From NCBI GenBank assembly GCA_019636195.1, contig JAHBYA010000006.1, positions 61,017 through 125,016 on the forward strand: a DNA stretch of 64,000 nucleotides, read 5' to 3'. The number at the start of each line of letters is the position of its first letter. Position 1 is the stretch's first letter. Both the position numbers and the translations under genes were made by a program. The stretch is from Planctomycetota bacterium. Lineage in GTDB: Bacteria > Planctomycetota > UBA8742 > UBA2392. Under the pieces are notes generated by a model. That model was not told where the DNA came from. It saw only the letters and a program-made list of their open reading frames with translations, and searched no databases. Shown piece by piece: positions 8,988 through 64,000 of the stretch.

Positions 8988-11096
<2,109 letters not shown>

Positions 11097-53634: not shown

Positions 53635-53872
53635 TGTGCGCAACTACAGTCACAAGTCAGGTTCCGTCGCACAATTTTGTTTACAATTCGAGTTTCGATT
53701 CTGATTCTTGGATCATCAAGATTCAGTAGTTCTTGCAACGGCAAAATTGTGCAGTATGGGCATTAGCCGAATTCCTTTGCACCTAAACCGTTTTCGCTTC
53801 TCGCCCGTTGTGCAGGCGTGCCACACTTCAAGTAATTCCTGATTGTTGTCAGCACCTTGCAAGGGGACTGCC

Positions 53873-55396
53873 ATGGTGAACCGGCTTCCTGCGCTGGTGT
53901 TCTGGGCCGCAGCAATCGGGTTGATCGTGTTCTCGACGGGCTGCGTGCAGGAAGGCGGCAAAGCCGACCTTGCACCCGCAGCGGAAGAGGACCTCAGCCC
54001 GGTTACCCAGATCAGCCAGAACGACCGCATCTTCTTTCTCAAACGTACGCACTTTGCGTTCCGGCCCACGGAACTGCAGACGCTGAACCAGATGGGGTAC
54101 GAACCGTACCTTGACTGGATGCTGACGCTGCAACAGGACCCGGCCCTTGAGGCCGCGGCGCTGGCCGCCACGGTGGCCGACGTCGAGTTTCCCAGCACAG
54201 CCGAGCTGTCGCGCTGGTGGTGCTGGCTGATGGTGCACAACCCCAACGCGTTTCAAGAGCGACTGGCGCTGTTCTGGCACGACCACTTCGCGACCAGCAC
54301 CGACGTGCTTGAAGCCGGCGAGCGCTACTGGTTCTTCAACCACATCAACCTGTGGCGCTTCCAGGGCACCAGCGGCCTGCCCGACCTGCTGCACAACATG
54401 AGCATCGACTGGGCGATGCTGAAGTGGCTCGACGGCTACGTCAGCACCCGAACCGCGCCCAACGAGAACTTCGCCCGCGAATTCTGGGAGTTGTTCACGC
54501 TCGGCGCCGACAACGGCTACACCGAGGCCGACATCCAGGAAGCAAGCCGCGCCTTTACCGGCTACCGGCGCATCTTTGTGCCGGACGCGGCGGGGCCGGG
54601 ACGTGACCAGTTCATCATGCAATGGGACCCGAACCGCCACGACAACACCTCAAAGTCGATCTTCGGCCAGACCTTCGCCGGAAACGGCCAGCAGGAGTAC
54701 CGCGACATGGTGACGTTCACGCTGTCTCACCGCGGCGTGGCCGAGTTCATCGCGCGCAAGATATGGGAAGAGTTTGTCTATGAAGACCCCAGCCCCGGAC
54801 TGGTCAGCAAGCTGGGCAAAAACCTGCGCGGCAAGAACTACGACCTGCGCGCCTTCCTAAAGATGATCTTCACTTCCAAGGCTTTCTTCAGCAGCCGCGC
54901 GCGCCAGAGCATCATCAAGAACCCGATCGAGCACCACATCGGCTTCATGCGCGCCACCGGCCTTGAAATCACCACCAACCGCATGGACAGCAACCTCAAC
55001 ACCATCGGCCAGCGGCCCACCCAGCCGCCCACCGTCAACGGCTGGCCCAGCGGGTTCTTCTGGCTGAGCAGCCAGGCGATGGTCGAGCGCGCGAACTTCT
55101 TGCGCGACTGCGTGTACTACCGCGCCGAGGCGCCGCAGGTCGGGTACGACGTAAGCACGCTGATCCTGCCGAACGAGACTGCGGACTGGCAGGTCGTGGA
55201 CCGGCTGGCCTTCCTGTTGCAGGTCAAGCTGACCGCCGCCCAGCGCGACGAGTGCATCCTGTACTTGAACTCGGACCGCAACAGCGGCGGCGTGTTCAGC
55301 CAGACCTGGGACTTCGGCGATGCCGTGCAGAAGGAAAAGAAGATTCGCGGGCTGCTTTACATCCTTGGCCAGCACCCCACCTATCACCTTCGGTGA
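53873..55396 (+). CDS. DUF1800 family protein
   Basis: Length and organisation typical of DUF1800, immediately upstream of a DUF1501 gene. Signal/anchor MVNRLPALVFWAAAIGLIVFSTGC. AAGGGGA RBS. Confidence 0.75.
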   Translation: MVNRLPALVFWAAAIGLIVFSTGCVQEGGKADLAPAAEEDLSPVTQISQNDRIFFLKRTHFAFRPTELQTLNQMGYEPYLDWMLTLQQDPALEAAALAATVADVEFPSTAELSRWWCWLMVHNPNAFQERLALFWHDHFATSTDVLEAGERYWFFNHINLWRFQGTSGLPDLLHNMSIDWAMLKWLDGYVSTRTAPNENFAREFWELFTLGADNGYTEADIQEASRAFTGYRRIFVPDAAGPGRDQFIMQWDPNRHDNTSKSIFGQTFAGNGQQEYRDMVTFTLSHRGVAEFIARKIWEEFVYEDPSPGLVSKLGKNLRGKNYDLRAFLKMIFTSKAFFSSRARQSIIKNPIEHHIGFMRATGLEITTNRMDSNLNTIGQRPTQPPTVNGWPSGFFWLSSQAMVERANFLRDCVYYRAEAPQVGYDVSTLILPNETADWQVVDRLAFLLQVKLTAAQRDECILYLNSDRNSGGVFSQTWDFGDAVQKEKKIRGLLYILGQHPTYHLR

Positions 55397-55444
55397 GCAA
55401 GGGGCGACAGACCGGATGAAAAGGCAAACCCACAGGAGCGAACC

Positions 55445-56749
55445 ATGAACCGCAACCTCAAAAGCACCGCCCGCCGCAACTTCCTGCGCGTAAGCGCCGG
55501 CGCCGCGGGCGTCGCCGCGCTGGGCGCCGTGACCGGCAACGGGCATACGCCGCTGAAGGCGGCTGCGCTGCCCAACCACAAACGGCTTGTCATCGTCAAC
55601 ATGCTGGGCGGCAACGACGGTCTCAACACCGTGTTCCCAGTGACCGGCGCGGAAGCTGCCGCCTACCTGAACAACCGCCCCACGCTCGGTTTCGCGCAGG
55701 GCCAGGGCCTGAGCCTGACCGGCGGGCCCGGCGTCAGCGAGTACGAGTTGCACCCGTCGCTGGTGAACTTCCAGGCGCGCTGGAATGCGGGGCAGATGGC
55801 CGTGATCCACAAGGTCGGCTACCCGCAACAGAACCTCAGCCACTTCGTCAGCGAAGATATCTGGAGCTACGGCACGCGCAGCGGGCTGGGCTCGCTGGTC
55901 GGCATGGCCCCGGGCTGGGTCGCCCGCTACGGCAACACCTACGCCCCCACCACGATGGGTGTGGTCAGCATCGGTGTCGGCCGGCGCCTAGACTTCGCGG
56001 GCGCGAACGTCAACCCGTTTCTGGTTTCCAGCGTCGCAAGCTTCAACTATCGCACCGACTTCAACTACACCCAGAACCACGCCCTGCGCCTGCAAACCAT
56101 CCAGAACATCCTGGCCCTGCAGCCTGCCGGCGACATTGTCGGCGACATTGCCGCCGCCGGAAGCTCGGCTTTCTCGGCAGCGGCGCAGGTGCAGCAGGCC
56201 GCCAGCGACTACACGGCGTGGGCTGCGGGCAACTCGATCGTGTACCCCAACACCTCGATGGGCAACCGCCTGCGCGACATCGCGACGCTGATCCACGGCA
56301 CCACCGCCACCGGCGGCTTTGAGTCGCGCGTCTTCTACACAGGCTATGGCGGCTTTGACACGCACAGCAACCAGCTCACGGCGCACGCCGGCCTGCTTAC
56401 GCAGCTCGATAACGCGCTGGGCGTCTTCTACACCGACCTGGTGGCGCAGGGAGTCTGGAACGACACCGTGCTTGTCGTGATCAGCGAGTTCGGGCGCCGC
56501 AACTATGAAAACGGCAGCAACGGCACCGACCATGGCCACGGCAACTGCGTGCTGGTGGTCGGCGGGCCCGTCAACGGCGGCTTCTACGGCACGCTGCCCA
56601 GCGTTGCCGACCTGAACATGGGCCACCTCAACTACAACACCGACTTCCGCGACGTGTACCGCGCCCTGCTGATGCAGCACCTGGCGCACGACCCCACGCC
56701 GCTGTTTCCTGAAACACAACCGACCAACAACGTGCCCAACCTCGTGTGA
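55445..56749 (+). CDS. DUF1501 family protein (sulfatase-like fold), Tat-secreted
   Basis: Tat motif RRNFLRVSAGAAGVAALGA. Conserved DUF1501 blocks (LVIVNMLGGNDGLN, FGRRNYENGSNGTDHGHGN). AGGAG RBS. Confidence 0.85.
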   Translation: MNRNLKSTARRNFLRVSAGAAGVAALGAVTGNGHTPLKAAALPNHKRLVIVNMLGGNDGLNTVFPVTGAEAAAYLNNRPTLGFAQGQGLSLTGGPGVSEYELHPSLVNFQARWNAGQMAVIHKVGYPQQNLSHFVSEDIWSYGTRSGLGSLVGMAPGWVARYGNTYAPTTMGVVSIGVGRRLDFAGANVNPFLVSSVASFNYRTDFNYTQNHALRLQTIQNILALQPAGDIVGDIAAAGSSAFSAAAQVQQAASDYTAWAAGNSIVYPNTSMGNRLRDIATLIHGTTATGGFESRVFYTGYGGFDTHSNQLTAHAGLLTQLDNALGVFYTDLVAQGVWNDTVLVVISEFGRRNYENGSNGTDHGHGNCVLVVGGPVNGGFYGTLPSVADLNMGHLNYNTDFRDVYRALLMQHLAHDPTPLFPETQPTNNVPNLV

Positions 56750-56754
56750 GCATC

Positions 56755-57954
56755 ATGCCGATTTGCCGCCACTCCCCGCGCAAGGGCCCAGCCATCCGGC
56801 TGGGCCTGATGCCCGCCGTGCTGATGACCCTGCTGCTTGCGTCCTGCCCCGCAAGCGAAGATGGCGGCGGCAGCGGCGGTGGTGGCGGGGGCGGTGGCTA
56901 CCCGGACCCCGGGCCGCGCAACCCGCTGCCCGCGGACATCACGTCGCTTGACTACTACTGGGGCGTTGAGGCAATCGCCACGGGCCTGAGCACACCCTGC
57001 AAAATGGCGCAGGCCCCCGACGGCCGACTGTTCGTCAGCGAGCTGAACGGCACTCTGCGCATCATTGAGACCACCCCGCCGCACACGCAGCACGTCTTTG
57101 CATCTGAAAATGTGCTGACCGGCAACGAGCGCGGCCTGCTGGGCGTCGCACTATCGCCCGACTTCACGACCAACGGCTATGTCTATGTCATGCTGTGCAT
57201 CAACGACGTGACGGACCGGCAACAGGTCATCCGCTACACAGCCGTCGGCAATACCTCAACTGCGCGCACGGTGCTGATCGACAACCTGCCGATCGCCCAG
57301 ACCCACAACGCGGGCGCAATCAAATTCGGGCTTGATGGCCGGCTGTACGTCAGCGTCGGCGACGCCGAATTGGATACCAATTCGCAGACCAACGGCTCAC
57401 TGGCGGGGCGCATCCTGCGCTACAACGAAGACGGCAGCATCCCGGCGACCAACCCCAAGTTCGGCACGGTGGATGCCGCCGAGTGGTGCCGCGGCCTGCG
57501 CAACGCGTTCGGCATGTGCGTGCACCCGACGACGGGCACGATCCTGATCACGGAAAACGGGCCCAACAACAACGATGAACTGAATTACGTGTCGCCCGGC
57601 AAGAACTTCGAGTGGGGCTCTACGGGCGGCATACCCGGCGCTGAAATCGGCACCAAGCTGCGCAACTGGGGCAGCGTGATCGTGCCCACCGGCTTGACCT
57701 ACCACAGCGGCAACAACGCACCGCCCAACACAGCCGACGCGCTGTTCATCTGCAGCTACGACGAAGAAGTGGTGTACAAGTTCAAGATGGACGGCAACCC
57801 GCCGGTGAACATTGACACCGAGGAAGTGTTTCTGGAGTTCACGAAGAACTTCCAGGCCAACAAGCCGCTGGACATCATTGAGGCCAACGACGGCAGCCTT
57901 TACGTCAGCACGTTCACGGCTATCTGGCGCGTGTATCGCCGCACCGGGCCCTGA
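56755..57954 (+). CDS. PQQ-dependent sugar (glucose/sorbosone) dehydrogenase-like beta-propeller lipoprotein
   Basis: Lipobox LLASC plus poly-Gly linker. GSDH family motifs GLLGVALSPDF, LYVSVGD, RGLRNAFGM. 4-nt overlap with the DUF1501 stop. Confidence 0.75.
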   Translation: MPICRHSPRKGPAIRLGLMPAVLMTLLLASCPASEDGGGSGGGGGGGGYPDPGPRNPLPADITSLDYYWGVEAIATGLSTPCKMAQAPDGRLFVSELNGTLRIIETTPPHTQHVFASENVLTGNERGLLGVALSPDFTTNGYVYVMLCINDVTDRQQVIRYTAVGNTSTARTVLIDNLPIAQTHNAGAIKFGLDGRLYVSVGDAELDTNSQTNGSLAGRILRYNEDGSIPATNPKFGTVDAAEWCRGLRNAFGMCVHPTTGTILITENGPNNNDELNYVSPGKNFEWGSTGGIPGAEIGTKLRNWGSVIVPTGLTYHSGNNAPPNTADALFICSYDEEVVYKFKMDGNPPVNIDTEEVFLEFTKNFQANKPLDIIEANDGSLYVSTFTAIWRVYRRTGP

Positions 57955-59484
57955 CTACAAAAAGCGCGCGTACGTGCCGTAGCCCTTGTCAAAGAACTCG
58001 CGAAAGAAGCCCTCCGCCATCGCGCGTTGCGCCGCCGTGTTCTTGGCCTTGCTGCCGTCCGGGTACAGCGCCAGCGCGTTGGCCCAGTGTTGCGCAAGGC
58101 TCAGCATCTGCGGGCTCACGTTCGGGTCCAATGTGTCCAGCCGCTGCTGCGCCGCTTCGTGGTACTTCAGTGCCGCCTTCGTGTTGCCCGCCGCAAGCGC
58201 CAGCCGCGCGCCGGCCACGGCGTATGCAAACTCCTGCGTCGGGCGCACGGCAATGCGCCCGCGCTCGGCGTTGACGGCGGCTTCGAAGGCAGCGACAGGA
58301 TCGTTGTCGTCTTTGCCCTTCTTGCGGTTGCCGGTGGCGGTGGCCAGGCCGCGTGCCCACGCTTCCCAGATGCTGCCGTCGGCAAGGCCCAGCCGGTCAT
58401 CGCCCTTGTAGCGTTCATGAATCTGCGCCAGCTGGCTCCATTCCTCCATAAGGCCGGCAAAGCGCACCAGCGCGACGGCCTTGCTGCTGTGGTCTTCTCC
58501 GATGCCGGTGGCGTAGCTCAGCGGCGTAAGGCCGCTCAGCAGCATGGTCTCAACCAGCTTGCCGCTGAATGAACGCTTGAGCTGGTCAGGCAGCACGGGA
58601 TAGGTGTCGTGCAGGTCGCGCAGGCCTTCGCGCAGGTTGCCCAGTTCAATGTTCAGCACGGCGTGCAGCGCCTGAATCTGCTTGTAGCGGCCCCAGTCCT
58701 TGCCCACGTCTTCGTACAGCGCCAGCGTGGCGCGGCAGATGCGGCGGGCCTCTCGGGCCCGGTCGGCGCGGTGCAGGCTGACGATCAGGTTGATCGCCAG
58801 CGCCGCGTGTTCCTTGTCCATGGTCACGTCGCTGGCAGCGAGGCTTTTCACGAACACCTTGCGGCTGAGCTCAAGCGCCTTCACCTGGTCGCCGAAGATG
58901 TGCTCGTAGAATTCCTGCAGGCTGTCGAATTCGACGTTCAGTTCAGGGTCGTCGCACAGGCGGCTGACCTGCTGGGCAGCTTTGCGCACCTCGGCGGCGC
59001 GGGTGGCATCCATGTCCTGCAACGCCTTCTTGAAGTTATCCAGCAGCTCGCGAAACACGGTCTTGGTGCGGCGGTTCAACACCGCGCGCAGCGCCTCGTA
59101 GCGTTCAATGGCGTCATTAAGCTCGCGCAAAACTTTCAGGTGGGCCTGGCCTGTCAGGGCGCCCAGCTTCATTTTGGCCACCTGGTTCATGGCCTCAACC
59201 AGCTCAAGCAGGTTGCTGGCCATTTCGCTGGTGCCGGCGCTCACGTCGGCCAGGTACGGCGTGCCTTCGCCGGTCATCAACCATGCGGGGTTCACGCCCA
59301 GGCCGGCGATCACGCTGGTGCAGAACTCGGCTGGGATTTTTGTGGACTTGAGGTAGCGGTTGACGGTGCTGACCAGGGTGCCGGTCTTGCGGGCAAGGTC
59401 GCTTTGGCTGCGGGTCTTGACCAGCACGCGCAAGCGCTCGCGGACCTGTTCGTCATACAAACGCGGAGTGACTTCCGTGCCCAT
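57955..59484 (-). CDS. Transcriptional regulator: N-terminal XRE-type helix-turn-helix plus large C-terminal all-helical (TPR-like) domain
   Basis: HTH QSDLARKTGTLVSTVNRYL...LGVNPAWLMTGEG. About 430 aa of helical repeats. Paralogue of 61784-63289. Divergent from the selenoprotein gene. Confidence 0.65.
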   Translation of the reverse strand: MGTEVTPRLYDEQVRERLRVLVKTRSQSDLARKTGTLVSTVNRYLKSTKIPAEFCTSVIAGLGVNPAWLMTGEGTPYLADVSAGTSEMASNLLELVEAMNQVAKMKLGALTGQAHLKVLRELNDAIERYEALRAVLNRRTKTVFRELLDNFKKALQDMDATRAAEVRKAAQQVSRLCDDPELNVEFDSLQEFYEHIFGDQVKALELSRKVFVKSLAASDVTMDKEHAALAINLIVSLHRADRAREARRICRATLALYEDVGKDWGRYKQIQALHAVLNIELGNLREGLRDLHDTYPVLPDQLKRSFSGKLVETMLLSGLTPLSYATGIGEDHSSKAVALVRFAGLMEEWSQLAQIHERYKGDDRLGLADGSIWEAWARGLATATGNRKKGKDDNDPVAAFEAAVNAERGRIAVRPTQEFAYAVAGARLALAAGNTKAALKYHEAAQQRLDTLDPNVSPQMLSLAQHWANALALYPDGSKAKNTAAQRAMAEGFFREFFDKGYGTYARFL

Positions 59485-59672
59485 GGGGCCCCCGTTGCCG
59501 ATGTGCGAAAGTAGAATGCGCGAAATTATTGCATACACAAAGGGATCGCGCCATCGCGGATTGGAAAAACCCTGGGCCAGCGCCGTGCCCCGCAAAATTC
59601 TTATTTGGGTTTCCGGCCAAAGCCGGGTAATCCATATCAGTAATGTTCCCTTTCCTCTCTACTGGAGACCAG

Positions 59673-60656
59673 ATGAAAACGATGCTTACGCTCAGCGTAG
59701 TTGCGCTGGCGCTGCTCGCTTCTCCGGCGTTCGCGCAGGACGCCAAAGGCGTGCAGTGGACCGACAACTACGAGGGCGCCCTCAAGACCGCCAAGGAAGA
59801 AAAGAAGCGGTTGTTCATTGAATTCACCGCCGAATGGTGAGGCCCCTGCAAGAAACTGGCCCGTGACGTATGGCCAGATGAGGCGCTTGCCAAGACCATC
59901 GCCAAGAACTTTGTGCCGGTGATGCTGTACGACGACAAGGCGCCCGATGTCCTCAAGAAGTACGGCGTGCGTGCCTTCCCGACCTTCATTGTCACCGACG
60001 CCGACGGCAAAGAAGAGATGCGCCAGGTCGGCGCGCCCTTCAGCACCCCGGCCGACGCCATCAAGTGGTTCGAAAAGGTCGGCGACGCCTTTGTCAACCT
60101 GCCCAAGTACGAGGCGGCCTACGAGAAGAGTGCCGACGACCACGACAATGCCATCAAGCTGGCGGACGCCTACGCCGCGCTGGGCAAAGCCGACAAGGCC
60201 ATGCCGATTTACGAAAAGCTGGCTGAGAAGCTGCCCAAAGACGACAAGCGCCGGGTTGACGTGCAACTGGCATACGCGCAGGCGTTGATCGGCACCGCCA
60301 CCCGCGAAAACCAGGCCGAAGTCGGCGCCAAGATCCAGAAGATCTATGACGACGTGCTGCCCGGGCTGGTCAAGGCCAAGGATGAACGCGCCCTTGAGCC
60401 CGGCATCCTGAACGCACGCCTCAAGTCCGGCATCGGTAAAGACCACGATGGCGCACGCAAGGACCTCAAGGCGCTGATCGAGGCCTTCCCCGAGACCAGC
60501 CGCATGAACGAACTCATGTACTGGGCCGCGGCCATCGCACAGCAGGCCGGCGACAACGACGCCGCCAAGGCCGAGTTCCAGGCGCTGATCAAGCGCGGCC
60601 CCGCCGAAGACGACTACGTCAAGGCCGCCCAACGCAGCCTTGACCGCATGAAGTAG
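59673..60656 (+). CDS. Periplasmic thioredoxin-fold protein with in-frame TGA (putative selenocysteine, W-U-G-P-C) fused to a C-terminal TPR-like helical domain
   Basis: GGAG RBS 5 nt before ATG 59673. Signal peptide MKTMLTLSVVALALLASPAFA. Beta1 KRLFIEFTAEW, then TGA at 59838-59840, then GPC. Conserved cis-Pro (RAFPTFIV). The ORF track splits this at the TGA into 59643-59840 and 59913-60656; both are in the same frame with no other stop between. SECIS-like hairpin at 59856-59877. Strong terminator after the stop. Confidence 0.55.
59856..59877 (+). ncRNA. SECIS-like mRNA hairpin downstream of the in-frame UGA
   Basis: Perfect 6-bp GC-rich stem CUGGCC/GGCCAG with a 10-nt loop (CGUGACGUAU, containing GU). 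It starts 16 nt after the UGA, within the spacing used by bacterial SECIS elements. Confidence 0.4.
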
Positions 60657-60675
60657 CCAGATCTGCAATTTGAAA

Positions 60676-60703
60676 GGGCGGGCGCGAGCCCGCCCTTTCT
60701 GTT
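60676..60703 (+). terminator. Rho-independent terminator after the selenoprotein gene
   Basis: GGGCGGGC-gcga-GCCCGCCC followed by TTTCTGTT. Confidence 0.7.
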
Positions 60704-60729
60704 GGTGGCTGCCGCAAATGTTGTATAAG
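60702..60729 (+). promoter_or_regulatory. Candidate sigma70-like promoter (TTGGTG-N16-TATAAG) for gene 60747-61787
   Basis: Lies between the upstream terminator and the RBS. Confidence 0.35.
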
Positions 60730-60746
60730 CAACCCGGAGGTTGACC

Positions 60747-61787
60747 GTGCGCATCCCACTCGCCGCCCTGTTGCTGCTTGCACTTGCCTGCCATATCCCC
60801 GGCGCCGCGGAAGACGCCCCGGCCCCGGACCGCAAAGCCGCCATGAAGGCCGCCGCGCGCGCAGTCGGCGGGTCGTGGGTCAGTGAAGCGGTCGGGCCCG
60901 ACGGCAAAACATCGTGGGTGCGCAGCGAAACCACCTGGAGCGAAAACAAGCGTATCCTGCGCGCGCGCACGTGGTCGCTGACCGCAGACAACGAAACCCT
61001 CGACTTTGAAGGCGGCATGTACTGGCACCCCGGCACCAAGCGCATCGAGTACTTCGCCGTCATGGCCAACGGCGGTTTGTTCAAGGGCCACGTTGAGGTC
61101 AAGCAGGGCAGGCTGATCAGCCGCTGGAGCGCATGGATGGGCAGCATGACCATGCACGGTGAAAACCACACCGAGTACACCGACGACGACACCCAGGTGA
61201 CCAAAATTTACACCAAGACCGGCGATACCCTGCGCCTGATGAAAGAAATGAAAACCGTGCGCAAAGAAGCCGGCTGGAAACCCGCCAAGCCCGAAGAGGG
61301 CGACAAGGACGAAACGCCCGACAGCCCCGAGCCCTCGAGCCTCGAGCACTCCGGCAAGCTGGTCGGCGGGCAGTGGGTGACCCAGACCGACCCGGACAAG
61401 CCATACAACGGCTTCACATACGAGTGGGGCATCGGCAAACAGTTGATCTGGGGCCGCACGTTCGCAGCCAACGCCGGGGCAACCAAGGTGCTGTACGAAG
61501 GCGCACAGTACTGGCACCCGGGCGAGAAAAAGCTGCGGTACTTTGAGTGCGCAACCGGCGGCGAAGTGTACGAGGGCGAGATTACGCGCAAGGGCGAAAC
61601 CGAAATCTCCGCCTTCAAGGCCTACGGCGACAAGGGCGTCACCGAGTATGAGCAGCACAGCAAGCTCACGGACAAAGACACGCTGGAAAGCACAGTGTTC
61701 ATCCGCCAGGGCGAAGAGTTCAAACAGGCCCACAAGTTCAAGTTCACCCGCAAGCCCGCCGACTGGCCCCCAAAGCAGGACAACTAG
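60747..61787 (+). CDS. Secreted hypothetical protein with internal tandem duplication (two approximately 110-aa YWHPG.K..YF modules)
   Basis: GGAGG RBS 6 nt before GTG 60747. Signal peptide. Repeats ...MYWHPGTKRIEYFAV... and ...AQYWHPGEKKLRYFEC.... Confidence 0.5.
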   Translation: MRIPLAALLLLALACHIPGAAEDAPAPDRKAAMKAAARAVGGSWVSEAVGPDGKTSWVRSETTWSENKRILRARTWSLTADNETLDFEGGMYWHPGTKRIEYFAVMANGGLFKGHVEVKQGRLISRWSAWMGSMTMHGENHTEYTDDDTQVTKIYTKTGDTLRLMKEMKTVRKEAGWKPAKPEEGDKDETPDSPEPSSLEHSGKLVGGQWVTQTDPDKPYNGFTYEWGIGKQLIWGRTFAANAGATKVLYEGAQYWHPGEKKLRYFECATGGEVYEGEITRKGETEISAFKAYGDKGVTEYEQHSKLTDKDTLESTVFIRQGEEFKQAHKFKFTRKPADWPPKQDN

Positions 61788-63289
61788 TCGCTGGCGAGCG
61801 GTCGAAAACGGCCGTAGCCCTTTCTGTAGTGCGCGACAAACCATTCGCGCGCGCGGTCGTAGTCACGCTGCGGGCCCTTGGCGCGCAACGCTACGTGGTG
61901 CTGGATCGCGTATGCAATGAGGTAGGGCCGGACGCCCTTGGGCAACGATTGCTCCATCTCGGCTGCTGCGTCAAGGAGTTTGCGCGCTTCCTGCGGCCGC
62001 CCGCACAACAGCGCAAGCTGTGCTTCGAAGGTGCTTATCTGGAACTGCATCTGCGGCGATGACGGGTAACTTCGCCTGAGTGCTTCTATGTCCGCGCCTG
62101 CCTCAGCCAGTGTGCTCTGGGTGGGTTGTTGCAGCGCGCGCAACGCCCAGGTCGCGTGCGTGAACTCCGGCTCGGGGTCGTTGGACAGGTCCTTGCGCAA
62201 CTCACGATAGATCTCGAGCGCGCGTTGCAGGTTGGGCCCGGACTCAGACCATAGCGCCATGCGTGCAAGGCACTGCGCGAACAGCTCCACGCCGCCCACC
62301 GGCCTGGGCTGCACAGCCAGGTGTTCGAACTCGGCGACGCCCGAGAAGTACTGGGCGTAACTCCAGGGCCCCATCCAGGCGGGCCGAACCCGGTCGTCGA
62401 TGAAAGTCATCGCGCGCTGCAGCAACGGCATGCCTTCCTGGATCTCTCCAAGTTCGGTCAGCACGTCACCAATCTGTGCGTCAAGCCGCGCCAGCAGATG
62501 GGTCGGGGCCTGGTATGCATCGCCCAGCACGCGCATTGCGCGGCACAGGGCCACGCTTTCGTCAAGGCGGCCCGCGCCCTCCAGCAGGTAAGTAGAACGG
62601 ATGATCACGGCAAGCGCGTCGGTGCTCAACGTGCCGGCCCGGACAATCGCGCGCAACGCCGCGCTGCGCTGCTTGTCCACCGCAAGGTCTGAACGGTGCG
62701 CCACCATGTCGTCCATCGCCTGCGCTTCCAGCAACCGGAACGCGAGGTCTTCATCATCGCAAAGGCGCGCCACCTGCTCAGCGGCGCGGCGCAACTGGTG
62801 CACGCGCTCGGGGTGTTTGCGCCCGAAGCTGCTTTCCACATCGTCCAGAAGTTTGGCCAGAATCGGCCGGCTGTGCTCATTCAGCTTCTCGCGCAGTCTT
62901 TCATATGCGCGCAGGGCATCGTCCAGGTCGCGCAGCGCCTTCAGGTGCTGCTTGCCGGTCAGGGCGCCCAGCCGCATCTGCGCCACCACATGCATCGCCT
63001 CTACTACTTCAAGCAGGTCCGTCGCCATGCGCGCGTGGCCGGCGTGAATGTCAGCCAGATAGGGCGAGCCCTCGCCGTTCAACAGCCAGGCGGGGTTGAC
63101 ACCGAAGCCCTTGACCAACGCCGCGCAAAACGAGGCGGGAATGCGGTTGCCGGAAAGGTAGCGGCTTACGTTGGCCCGGCTTGTGGCGCAGACTCGGGCG
63201 ACGTCAGCCTGGCTGTGGCGGTCACAGACCTGCTGGAGTCTTTTGCGGATGCCCTCGTCTGCATCGGAATTGGGTTCGGTGTCCGGCAT
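61784..63289 (-). CDS. Transcriptional regulator, XRE-type HTH plus large helical domain (paralogue of 57955-59484)
   Basis: HTH HSQADVARVCATSRANVSRYL...FGVNPAWLLNGEG. Shared blocks (LLEVVEAM...MRLGALTGKQHLKALRDL) and C-terminal KGYGRF. Start chosen at MPDTEP to align with the paralogue. Confidence 0.65.
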   Translation of the reverse strand: MPDTEPNSDADEGIRKRLQQVCDRHSQADVARVCATSRANVSRYLSGNRIPASFCAALVKGFGVNPAWLLNGEGSPYLADIHAGHARMATDLLEVVEAMHVVAQMRLGALTGKQHLKALRDLDDALRAYERLREKLNEHSRPILAKLLDDVESSFGRKHPERVHQLRRAAEQVARLCDDEDLAFRLLEAQAMDDMVAHRSDLAVDKQRSAALRAIVRAGTLSTDALAVIIRSTYLLEGAGRLDESVALCRAMRVLGDAYQAPTHLLARLDAQIGDVLTELGEIQEGMPLLQRAMTFIDDRVRPAWMGPWSYAQYFSGVAEFEHLAVQPRPVGGVELFAQCLARMALWSESGPNLQRALEIYRELRKDLSNDPEPEFTHATWALRALQQPTQSTLAEAGADIEALRRSYPSSPQMQFQISTFEAQLALLCGRPQEARKLLDAAAEMEQSLPKGVRPYLIAYAIQHHVALRAKGPQRDYDRAREWFVAHYRKGYGRFRPLASD

Positions 63290-63460
63290 GGTTGCTTCAG
63301 GGCTAAAGTGATCCCGATCTGAAACAGAGGTCATGTAGTGATTCTGTTCAGTAACACTACTATACGATTACACTCAAAGTCAATTGCTAAATAGTTACAG
63401 TGGCGATCACCAGCACAAACCAGCGGCCAACACGCCGCAACCGGATAGTGGGGAGAACGC

Positions 63461-64000
63461 CATGAGAATTCCGTTTTGCCTTGTGACACTGGCTGCTTGC
63501 GTGTGCGCGGGCGCCTTGTCCGCCGTCACTGTCAACGTCAGCAATGAAACTGAACTGCGGCAGGCGATCAGCACCATCAACGCCAGCGCCGCAGCCCAGG
63601 ACGAAATCATTCTCGCGCCCGGCACCTACATGCGCGGCGCTGGCACGCCGGCCGCCGAGGAAAATGCCAATGCATCCGGCGACTACGACATCACCAAAGC
63701 GGTCAGCAACTCACGCGTGATCATCCGCGGTCAGGCTGGCCAGGGCGCAAGCACGATCATTGACGCCAACAACAACGACCGTGTCTTCCATATCTTCACG
63801 ACCGCGAACATCACCGTCGAGTTTCGTGACCTGACGTTGACTCGCGGACGCGCAATCGGCGACGGCGCCAGCCTGACCGAGGCACGCGGCGGCGGCATCC
63901 TGAACCGGCGCCCGGGCACCAGCGCGACCACCAGCAGCGTCGAGCTGCATAACGTGGTTATCCAGGACTGCCTTGCGATTGGCGAAGACGGCGCCGACGG
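63461..64000 (+). CDS. Secreted beta-helix protein with CSLREA-like N-terminal motif (5' partial, runs off the window)
   Basis: ATG 63461, signal peptide MRIPFCLVTLAACVCAGALSA. VNVSNETELRQAISTINAS...IILAPGTY...IIRGQAG..TIIDANNNDRVFHI is typical of CSLREA/Pmp-like beta-helix N-termini. Not in the ORF track because no stop lies within the window. Confidence 0.5.

Follow-up and report, generated by a model that had tools for sequence, protein, structure and literature searches.

What links two similar transcriptional regulators to the genes that lie between them? The question is raised by a 64,000-nucleotide stretch of DNA from a Planctomycetota bacterium (GenBank assembly GCA_019636195.1, contig JAHBYA010000006.1, positions 61,017 to 125,016; hereafter the window), in which two minus-strand genes, here called regulators A and B, flank the genes for a thioredoxin-fold selenoprotein with tetratricopeptide repeats (TPR), or Trx-TPR protein, and for a secreted protein made of a duplicated domain. 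A first-pass annotation of the sequence described A and B as paralogues, each with an N-terminal Cro/C1-type helix-turn-helix (HTH) of the XRE family and a long helical domain, and saw in the whole a locally regulated periplasmic redox/secretion module. The paralogy was borne out, and the arrangement calls for another explanation. Indeed, A and B are distantly related copies of an unnamed, lineage-specific family confined to one group of uncultured Planctomycetota, most copies of which lie head-to-head with a secreted or surface-protein gene, so that the neighbourhood of the family is non-random. We favour, with moderate confidence, the interpretation that both are one-component HTH-TPR regulators, each controlling its own divergent secreted-protein gene. 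The genes concerned are the following.

57955 to 59484, minus strand: regulator A, 509 aa (MBX3459971.1, NCBI label 'hypothetical protein'), an open reading frame (ORF) with an exact public match.

59673 to 60656, plus strand: secreted thioredoxin-fold and TPR protein (Trx-TPR), with a TGA in frame at 59838-59840 (W-U-G-P-C); divergent from A, 188-bp gap.

60741 to 61787, plus strand: ORF of a secreted duplicated-domain protein with two homologous halves; convergent with B, 4-bp overlap.

61784 to 63289, minus strand: regulator B, 501 aa (MBX3459975.1, NCBI label 'helix-turn-helix transcriptional regulator'), with HTH at residues 8-71, long helices at 86-174 and a TPR-like part at 180-500.

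63462 to 64000, plus strand: 5' part of a large secreted-protein gene, truncated where the window ends; it diverges from B across 172 bp, and a signal peptide is visible.

Both regulator ORFs were confirmed on the minus strand, and the start codons read at 59484 (A) and 63289 (B) find support in most homologues, which also have an ATG about 60 codons ahead of the GVNPAW motif. Over their full length A and B are 30% identical (E 5e-64), and the window contains no further copy of the family. The two genes between them lie on the plus strand and both encode signal-peptide proteins, and a further signal-peptide protein starts just beyond B, at 63462, as the first-pass annotation had described. The halves of the duplicated-domain protein are 27% identical (E 2e-24); the protein has no Pfam or NCBIfam match, and its orthologue was found in one related locus only (L023, 40% identical).

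How large is the family to which A and B belong? Word-indexed searches gave 122 clusters with A as the query, all of them from Planctomycetes/Planctomycetota metagenome-assembled genomes (MAGs), and 30 with B. A profile search over 1.84 billion representatives gave 266 sequences at E<=1e-30, all of about 480-530 aa and matching end to end, which puts the family size at no fewer than 266 clusters at 50% identity. When each species was represented by a single genome, about 20 unclassified Planctomycetota genomes yielded 145 copies in all; there are about 6-8 copies per genome, and the closed 4.12-Mb genome JADJRK01 has at least eight. No Pfam or NCBIfam model exists for the family, NCBIfam assigns none to A or B, and the literature held nothing relevant on this family, on XRE-TPR regulators in Planctomycetes or on choice-of-anchor proteins.

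On the contig that our analysis gives as the window's own (JAHCJM010000002.1, 795 kb) there are at least four copies (A, B, P0052 and P0058), and A and B form the most distant pair among these four (29% global identity); they are therefore not the result of a local duplication. The orthologues of A make up a tight group, 59-92% identical across genomes; where the A orthologue reaches 92% identity, the best relative of B reaches just 56%. When the regulators were grouped by single linkage at 48% identity nearly all of them merged, because the N-terminus is conserved. Elsewhere in the family, two regulator/surface-protein pairs stand in tandem (L046 and L067) and two regulators stand tail to tail (L032), which suggests local duplication of whole pairs.

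The neighbours of these copies reveal what the family has in common. Neighbour genes were called, crudely, by codon-position GC in 87 loci, and their products were clustered. The dominant cluster (c1, 43 loci) contains proteins of 450-1350 aa whose genes immediately precede the regulator gene, on the other strand and usually at a distance of 80-140 bp. These proteins have a signal peptide and choice-of-anchor D/HYDIN-type immunoglobulin-like (Ig) repeats (NF012200); more generally, the partners belong to the choice-of-anchor D or Q type. Counted by an explicit C-terminal pattern, a complete divergent ORF carrying the C-terminal motif described below stands next to 35 of the 58 non-redundant non-A regulators, which is a lower bound, because three others are truncated at a contig end and the gene caller overlooked several c1 genes. 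No A-type locus has such a motif-bearing surface-protein partner (0/21). Moreover, in a separate subgroup of paralogues (L042, L048, L049, L053) the divergent gene encodes another secreted Trx-fold selenoprotein, with the TGA at Y-U-G-P-C; a divergent secreted partner thus seems to be a theme of the family, and this partner can be a redox selenoprotein. The census supports a non-random neighbourhood; its conserved element is, however, the divergent secreted protein and not a bracketed module.

The C-terminus shared by these partners consists of a Gly run, a Cys, a hydrophobic helix of about 20 residues and RRRR (for example L005 6342-9800, L007 267-3713, L089 4367-7828, L088 4000-5883 and about 35 other loci). 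It matches the NCBIfam model JDVT-CTERM weakly, below threshold, and may be an undescribed sorting signal in this lineage.

Regulator B follows this layout. Its orthologues are 52-56% identical. In L005 and L007, where the orthologue is 56% identical, the divergent gene encodes a protein of about 1150 aa that matches the N-terminus encoded from 63462 with 42-43% identity. These proteins carry a choice-of-anchor Q domain and the shared C-terminal motif. A nearly identical contig (L089, 96.8% identical to the window), which reaches 7.3 kb beyond the window end, provides the complete copy of the 63462 protein, 1153 aa long and ending in ..GGSGGGCAATGAGGAWLIAALVLLRRRRRG. The downstream side of the B orthologues is not conserved, with LysR in L005 and a helicase in L007. 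The conserved partner of B is the surface-protein gene at 63462, not the selenoprotein. P0052, the third paralogue of the same contig, also faces a divergent gene, that of a 627-aa Ig-repeat protein which bears the C-terminal motif. A further paralogue of 496 aa, 30% identical to B, is encoded at 2749-4239 of L089, about 3.8-5.3 kb beyond the window end; it is divergent from a choice-of-anchor-Q-like protein, 1136 aa of which lie inside the locus, and its upstream region holds GTTACTGAAAAGAAACAG, which resembles the conserved block of B described below.

Could A and B nevertheless act jointly on one local periplasmic redox/secretion module made of the Trx-TPR and duplicated-domain proteins, as first proposed? 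Every gene between them encodes a signal-peptide protein, the paralogue subgroup just mentioned is also paired with a Trx-fold selenoprotein, and A is divergent from the Trx-TPR gene in four related loci as well as in the window (L008, L009, L010 and L023). However, B converges on the 3' end of the putative module, its own conserved divergent partner stands at its opposite flank, and the duplicated-domain gene adjoins the Trx-TPR gene in the close relatives of the window only. Furthermore, in JADJRK01 the orthologue of A (92% identical) is found at 2.68 Mb and that of B at 3.14 Mb, 455 kb apart, so that the bracket is specific to this strain group; this separation, together with the position of A and B as the most distant paralogue pair on their contig, also argues against a joint function. 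We consider a joint module quite improbable. The flanking of the selenoprotein locus by A and B is mostly a coincidence, arising from a local cluster of regulator/partner pairs.

The situation of A is less simple. The Trx-TPR protein facing it matches Thioredoxin_7 (6e-16) and TPR models, and its in-frame TGA, which stands for the first Cys of the CxxC motif, is kept in five orthologues (L008, L009, L010, L023 and L037), the coding frame running on beyond it. A candidate selenocysteine insertion sequence (SECIS), the hairpin CUGGCC-N10-GGCCAG, lies at 59856-59877, 21 nt after the UGA; its folding is not significant (z-score -1.1), and no convincing covariation was seen across the five orthologues. 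The window contains no tRNA-Sec gene; SelB is present in a related genome.

TGA replaces the codon of the first CxxC Cys in several secreted Trx-fold proteins (window, L008, L009, L010, L023, L037, L042, L048, L049, L053, L072, L083, L087 and L076). Besides the Trx-TPR proteins (W-U-G-P-C) there is a second, TlpA-like selenoprotein family (Y/K/N-U-G-P-C). One protein of L076 has two TGAs (T-U-G-P-U), and L049 has a further F-W-U-G-P-C gene at about position 10553.

The Trx-TPR gene is directly divergent to A only in the clade of the window, that is, in the four related loci named above, whose A proteins are 84-92% identical. In L037 (A 73% identical) a methyltransferase gene stands between the two, and the Trx-TPR gene is absent from at least 12 other A-orthologue loci. 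More broadly, 9 of about 19 distinct A loci have a Trx-fold gene, either c6 or the TlpA-like c2, on the side divergent to A. On its other side, A is met in the window by a co-directional cluster at 53843-57954, encoding a DUF1800 protein, a DUF1501 protein with a Tat signal and a PQQ-type glucose/sorbosone dehydrogenase, which converges on A and ends exactly at its stop codon, with zero gap. In L004, L008, L009, L010, L013, L015, L016, L019 and L021 a conserved small gene (73-82 aa, MAEKTKAYKVLVKGELRGPF...) is convergent on the A orthologue; it is absent from the window, where the dehydrogenase gene abuts A.

What kind of regulators are A and B? The parts of A can be placed as follows.

59272 to 59463, minus strand: Cro/CI-type HTH, residues 8-71, five short helices (predicted model and profile matches).

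58960 to 59238, minus strand: conserved long-helix segment, residues 83-175 (LLELVEAMN..LGALTG..HLKVLRELNDA..QVSRLCDD), presumed dimerisation/output module (model and family conservation).

57961 to 58947, minus strand: predicted TPR/SUPR-like superhelical sensor domain, residues 180-508.

The HTH motifs ..NV(N/S)RYL.. and GVNPAWL(M/L)xGEG are carried by both A and B. Taken singly the two proteins match Pfam HTH_3 below its 23-bit cut-off (A 17.5 bits, B 19.5 bits), and A also has a weak Phage_CI_repr match. At the family level the XRE assignment is supported: 30 of 60 members match HTH_3 at E<=1e-3 (best 1.7e-8) and 19 of 60 match HTH_31, by which profile evidence the family as a whole is clearly of the XRE type. 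A and B match phage HTH-regulator profiles at about 1e-9 (A: phrog_8 at 1e-9). Are they, then, prophage or defence-island repressors, CI-like or AimR-like? The matches of the HTH to phrog_8, phrog_4 and Phage_CI_repr would agree with such an origin. However, their neighbours are housekeeping or secreted-protein genes with no phage gene among them, each genome holds 6-8 chromosomal paralogues, defence models gave one HTH-only match (E 0.008) and PADLOC gave nothing meaningful. We find this explanation hardly credible.

A PDB sequence search with the family profile gave marginal matches only, to TPR proteins and to the 434 repressor (E 0.13). AlphaFold2 models built on the family alignment reached a pLDDT (predicted local distance difference test) of 87.4 for A and 89.8 for B, with the same helix pattern. 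In both, five short helices occupy residues 8-71 (8-24, 27-34, 38-46, 52-62 and 66-71 in A) with a pLDDT of 84-96. From about residue 83 to the C-terminus both are all-helical, beginning in A with long helices at 83-108, 115-156 and 160-174, and ending in about 16 paired helices. Foldseek gave domain III of MalT (1hz4) as the top structural match for both models, ahead of Rap, AimR and NprR. The helical domain is thus predicted to be TPR-like, as the first-pass annotation had suspected; its comparison with RNPP regulators holds for this fold and not, as shown below, for the signalling.

Conservation is uneven along the protein. The mean pairwise identity in the family is about 0.55 over residues 11-180, with 0.55 for residues 77-180 taken by themselves, against 0.26 over residues 181-509, which we read as a shared output module joined to a diversified input module. 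The HTH and the helical segment of about 100 residues that follows it probably form a dimerising, DNA-binding output module, and the fast-diverging, MalT domain III-like superhelix of about 330 aa is probably a ligand- or partner-sensing input module. The Cys of RLCDD (C177 in A, about 58954-58956 in the window, with an equivalent in B) is near-invariant across the family; a second Cys (EFC) is common in the HTH, and the two could make a candidate redox or metal site.

MalT of E. coli is a STAND transcription activator of 901 aa, whose domain III is SUPR/TPR-like (PDB 1HZ4). The A/B family shares a sensor domain of this type, which is the top match of both models, with however about 12% sequence identity and a length of about 500 aa. 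Moreover, neither Pfam nor NCBIfam gave an ATPase or NB-ARC match: the family has no NOD or P-loop and no arm, and its HTH is N-terminal and XRE-type, where that of MalT is C-terminal and LuxR-type. A STAND/MalT identity was discarded on the absence of the NTPase domain and the N-terminal position of the XRE HTH. The matching domain of MalT is its maltotriose sensor (PMC4381067), and a small-molecule ligand is thus at least as plausible as a peptide for A and B.

A peptide ligand would be expected if A and B belonged to the RNPP/RRNPP(A) quorum-sensing receptors (PlcR, NprR, PrgX, Rgg, Rap, AimR), in which the TPR domain binds an imported oligopeptide derived from a small secreted propeptide encoded beside the receptor. 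The C-terminal TPRs are indeed a shared trait. The signature of these systems is a propeptide gene of 10-100 aa directly adjacent to a receptor of 250-500 aa (PMC10075063); A (509 aa) and B (501 aa) are at or above this usual size limit, around which the family ranges (about 480-530 aa), and the adjacent gene is lacking. The genes directly next to A and B encode large proteins (327-402 aa and about 1150 aa) and are separated from them by -4 to 188 bp. A search of the 500 nt around 88 members for conserved small ORFs (18-75 aa) turned up only out-of-frame shadows of conserved genes. With no room for a propeptide gene beside A and B, and no conserved small ORF in the 88 loci, we conclude that this is not an RRNPP system. 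Several other traits set the family apart: the conserved helical segment of about 100 residues between HTH and TPR domain, a best fold match with a sugar-binding sensor, the pairing with secreted or surface-protein genes, and homologues that are all in Planctomycetota MAGs, whereas RRNPP systems are found in Bacillota and mobile elements. Quorum sensing of this kind is very improbable here. The family resembles more ordinary XRE regulators (Cro/CI, HTH_3/HTH_31) that are divergent and autoregulated, in its HTH type and in its short shared intergenic region with conserved blocks; it differs from them in its large MalT-like sensor, its 6-8 copies per genome and its strongly conserved N-terminal 180 residues.

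Where could such regulators bind? The conserved elements upstream of A and B are these.

59494 to 59564, minus strand: conserved blocks upstream of A, CCAATCCGCGATGG; TGTGTATGCAATAAT; TTTCGCGCAT; TTTCGCACATCGGCAAC (15 A-orthologue upstream regions).

63340 to 63359, minus strand: conserved 20-nt block TAGTGTTACTGAACAGAATC, candidate operator or promoter-proximal element of B (B-orthologue intergenic alignment of WINB, L005 and L007).

63379 to 63398, minus strand: second conserved block GTAACTATTTAGCAATTGAC, containing a TTGAC(T/A) hexamer that precedes TAGTGT by 18 nt; the window and L005 have the same sequence here.

In front of B, the first-pass annotation had noted an imperfect palindrome at 63335-63361. 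We find there GTAGTG-N14-CACTAC, with perfect 6-bp arms and a 14-nt spacer, ending at 63360; about one such repeat is expected by chance per 170-bp region on our estimate, and the palindrome alone is not significant. The region itself nevertheless contains a conserved cis-element. Little is common to these intergenic sequences in the window, L005 and L007 beyond the near-invariant block TAGTGTT(A/G)C(T/C)GAAC(A/G)GAATC (63340-63359), which holds most of the palindrome. This block is restricted to B-type loci and has no second match in the window (0.01 expected). The outer arms of the palindrome are kept at 5 of 6 positions in L007 and are not kept in L005, so that the conserved unit is the 20-nt block and not the palindrome. 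TTGAC(T/A)-N18-TAGTGT would be a putative promoter of the B region. Between B and its partner, at 63421-63443 on the minus strand, lie three overlapping terminator-like hairpins with a GC stem and a T-rich tail (0.3 expected in shuffles).

Upstream of A, four blocks no more than 80 nt from the start codon recur in the corresponding regions of 15 orthologues, irrespective of the gene that lies beyond, which points to A's own promoter or to autoregulation. The Trx-proximal half of the same intergenic region is not conserved even among close relatives. Upstream of the other, non-A regulators, TATCG was found in 28 of 59 regions, as against 14 of 174 control intergenic regions from the same loci (p 2.6e-10); TGTATC (11 versus 1) and GTGTAT (9 versus 0) are enriched in the same comparison. 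One orientation predominates among these words, which stand 25-55 nt ahead of the ATG and sometimes recur about 44 nt further upstream. We take the conserved blocks as candidate operators. Several orthologue groups have clear inverted repeats, for example GTGTATTCgtttGAATACAC and TGTATACCtaatttGGTATACA. Palindromic operators were considered as a feature of the whole family and rejected: repeats with perfect 8-bp arms were present in 7 of 71 regions against 3 of 355 mononucleotide shuffles, and this excess vanished against real controls.

Several of our observations weigh against the control by each regulator of its own divergent neighbour. About a quarter to 40% of the non-A members have no such partner. 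The upstream neighbours of the A orthologues vary (methyltransferase, ClpB and others), and the adjacency of A and the Trx-TPR gene may be inherited synteny without regulatory meaning. A scan for consensus sigma-70 promoters found none at threshold in the A or the B intergenic region, the putative promoter of B scoring below it. Inverted repeats in general are no more frequent upstream of the regulators than in control intergenic regions, and the operator interpretation thus depends on the k-mer enrichment and the conservation among orthologues, not on palindromy. Finally, the long helices (about residues 83-156) belong to a low-confidence part of the models, with a pLDDT of just 50-60 over residues 81-120.

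Some of these points would be accounted for if A were instead an autoregulated core regulator acting on genes at other places in the genome, its position beside the Trx-TPR gene being non-functional inherited synteny, and if only fast-evolving paralogues such as B acted locally. In the same genome pairs, the orthologues of A are 72-92% identical where those of B are 52-56% identical. The conservation of the blocks upstream of A whatever its neighbour, the lack of conservation of the Trx-proximal half and the absence of any A-type locus with a sorted surface-protein partner go in the same direction. However, the presence of a divergent Trx-fold gene in nearly half of the distinct A loci (the 9 of about 19 given above) fits the rule of the family. 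We regard a purely distant role for A as possible, if somewhat doubtful.

We return, then, to the view that each regulator controls its own divergent secreted-protein gene. The analysis establishes the architecture of this family, its paralogy, its conservation pattern, the pairing of its genes and the conserved cis-blocks; DNA binding, ligand sensing and the direction in which its members regulate are what we infer. In the usual layout the regulator stands head-to-head, at about 80-190 bp, with one signal-peptide protein gene, usually that of a large, C-terminally sorted surface protein; in one subgroup and in the clade of A the partner is a secreted thioredoxin-fold selenoprotein. Each regulator would bind putative group-specific sites in the shared intergenic region and, once bound, would control its own promoter and that of its divergent partner according to a signal read by the TPR domain. 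The target of B would be the surface-protein gene at 63462, and A would act on itself and possibly on the Trx-TPR(Sec)/duplicated-domain gene pair. A more speculative extension, which we think unlikely as a whole, is a modular 'one sensor, one surface protein' system, in which the 6-8 paralogues of a genome would each gate a cognate sorted, adhesin-like surface protein or secreted selenocysteine oxidoreductase in response to different cytoplasmic ligands. The near-identical N-terminal 180 residues and the related GTGTAYC-like half-sites could then allow cross-talk or hetero-oligomerisation, and a choice of surface repertoires.

How uncultured Planctomycetota regulate their genes, and how they control their many large sorted surface proteins, is to our knowledge hardly known at all. 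At this locus, a plausible reading in which two regulators bracket their common target has been corrected to a mostly coincidental arrangement. The family of A and B is a variant of a known regulatory design, in a phylum whose regulation is poorly known: a MalT-type sensor domain appears to be joined directly to an XRE HTH, without the STAND ATPase. It supplies candidate regulator-target pairs where public annotations offer only 'hypothetical protein' or a generic 'helix-turn-helix regulator'.

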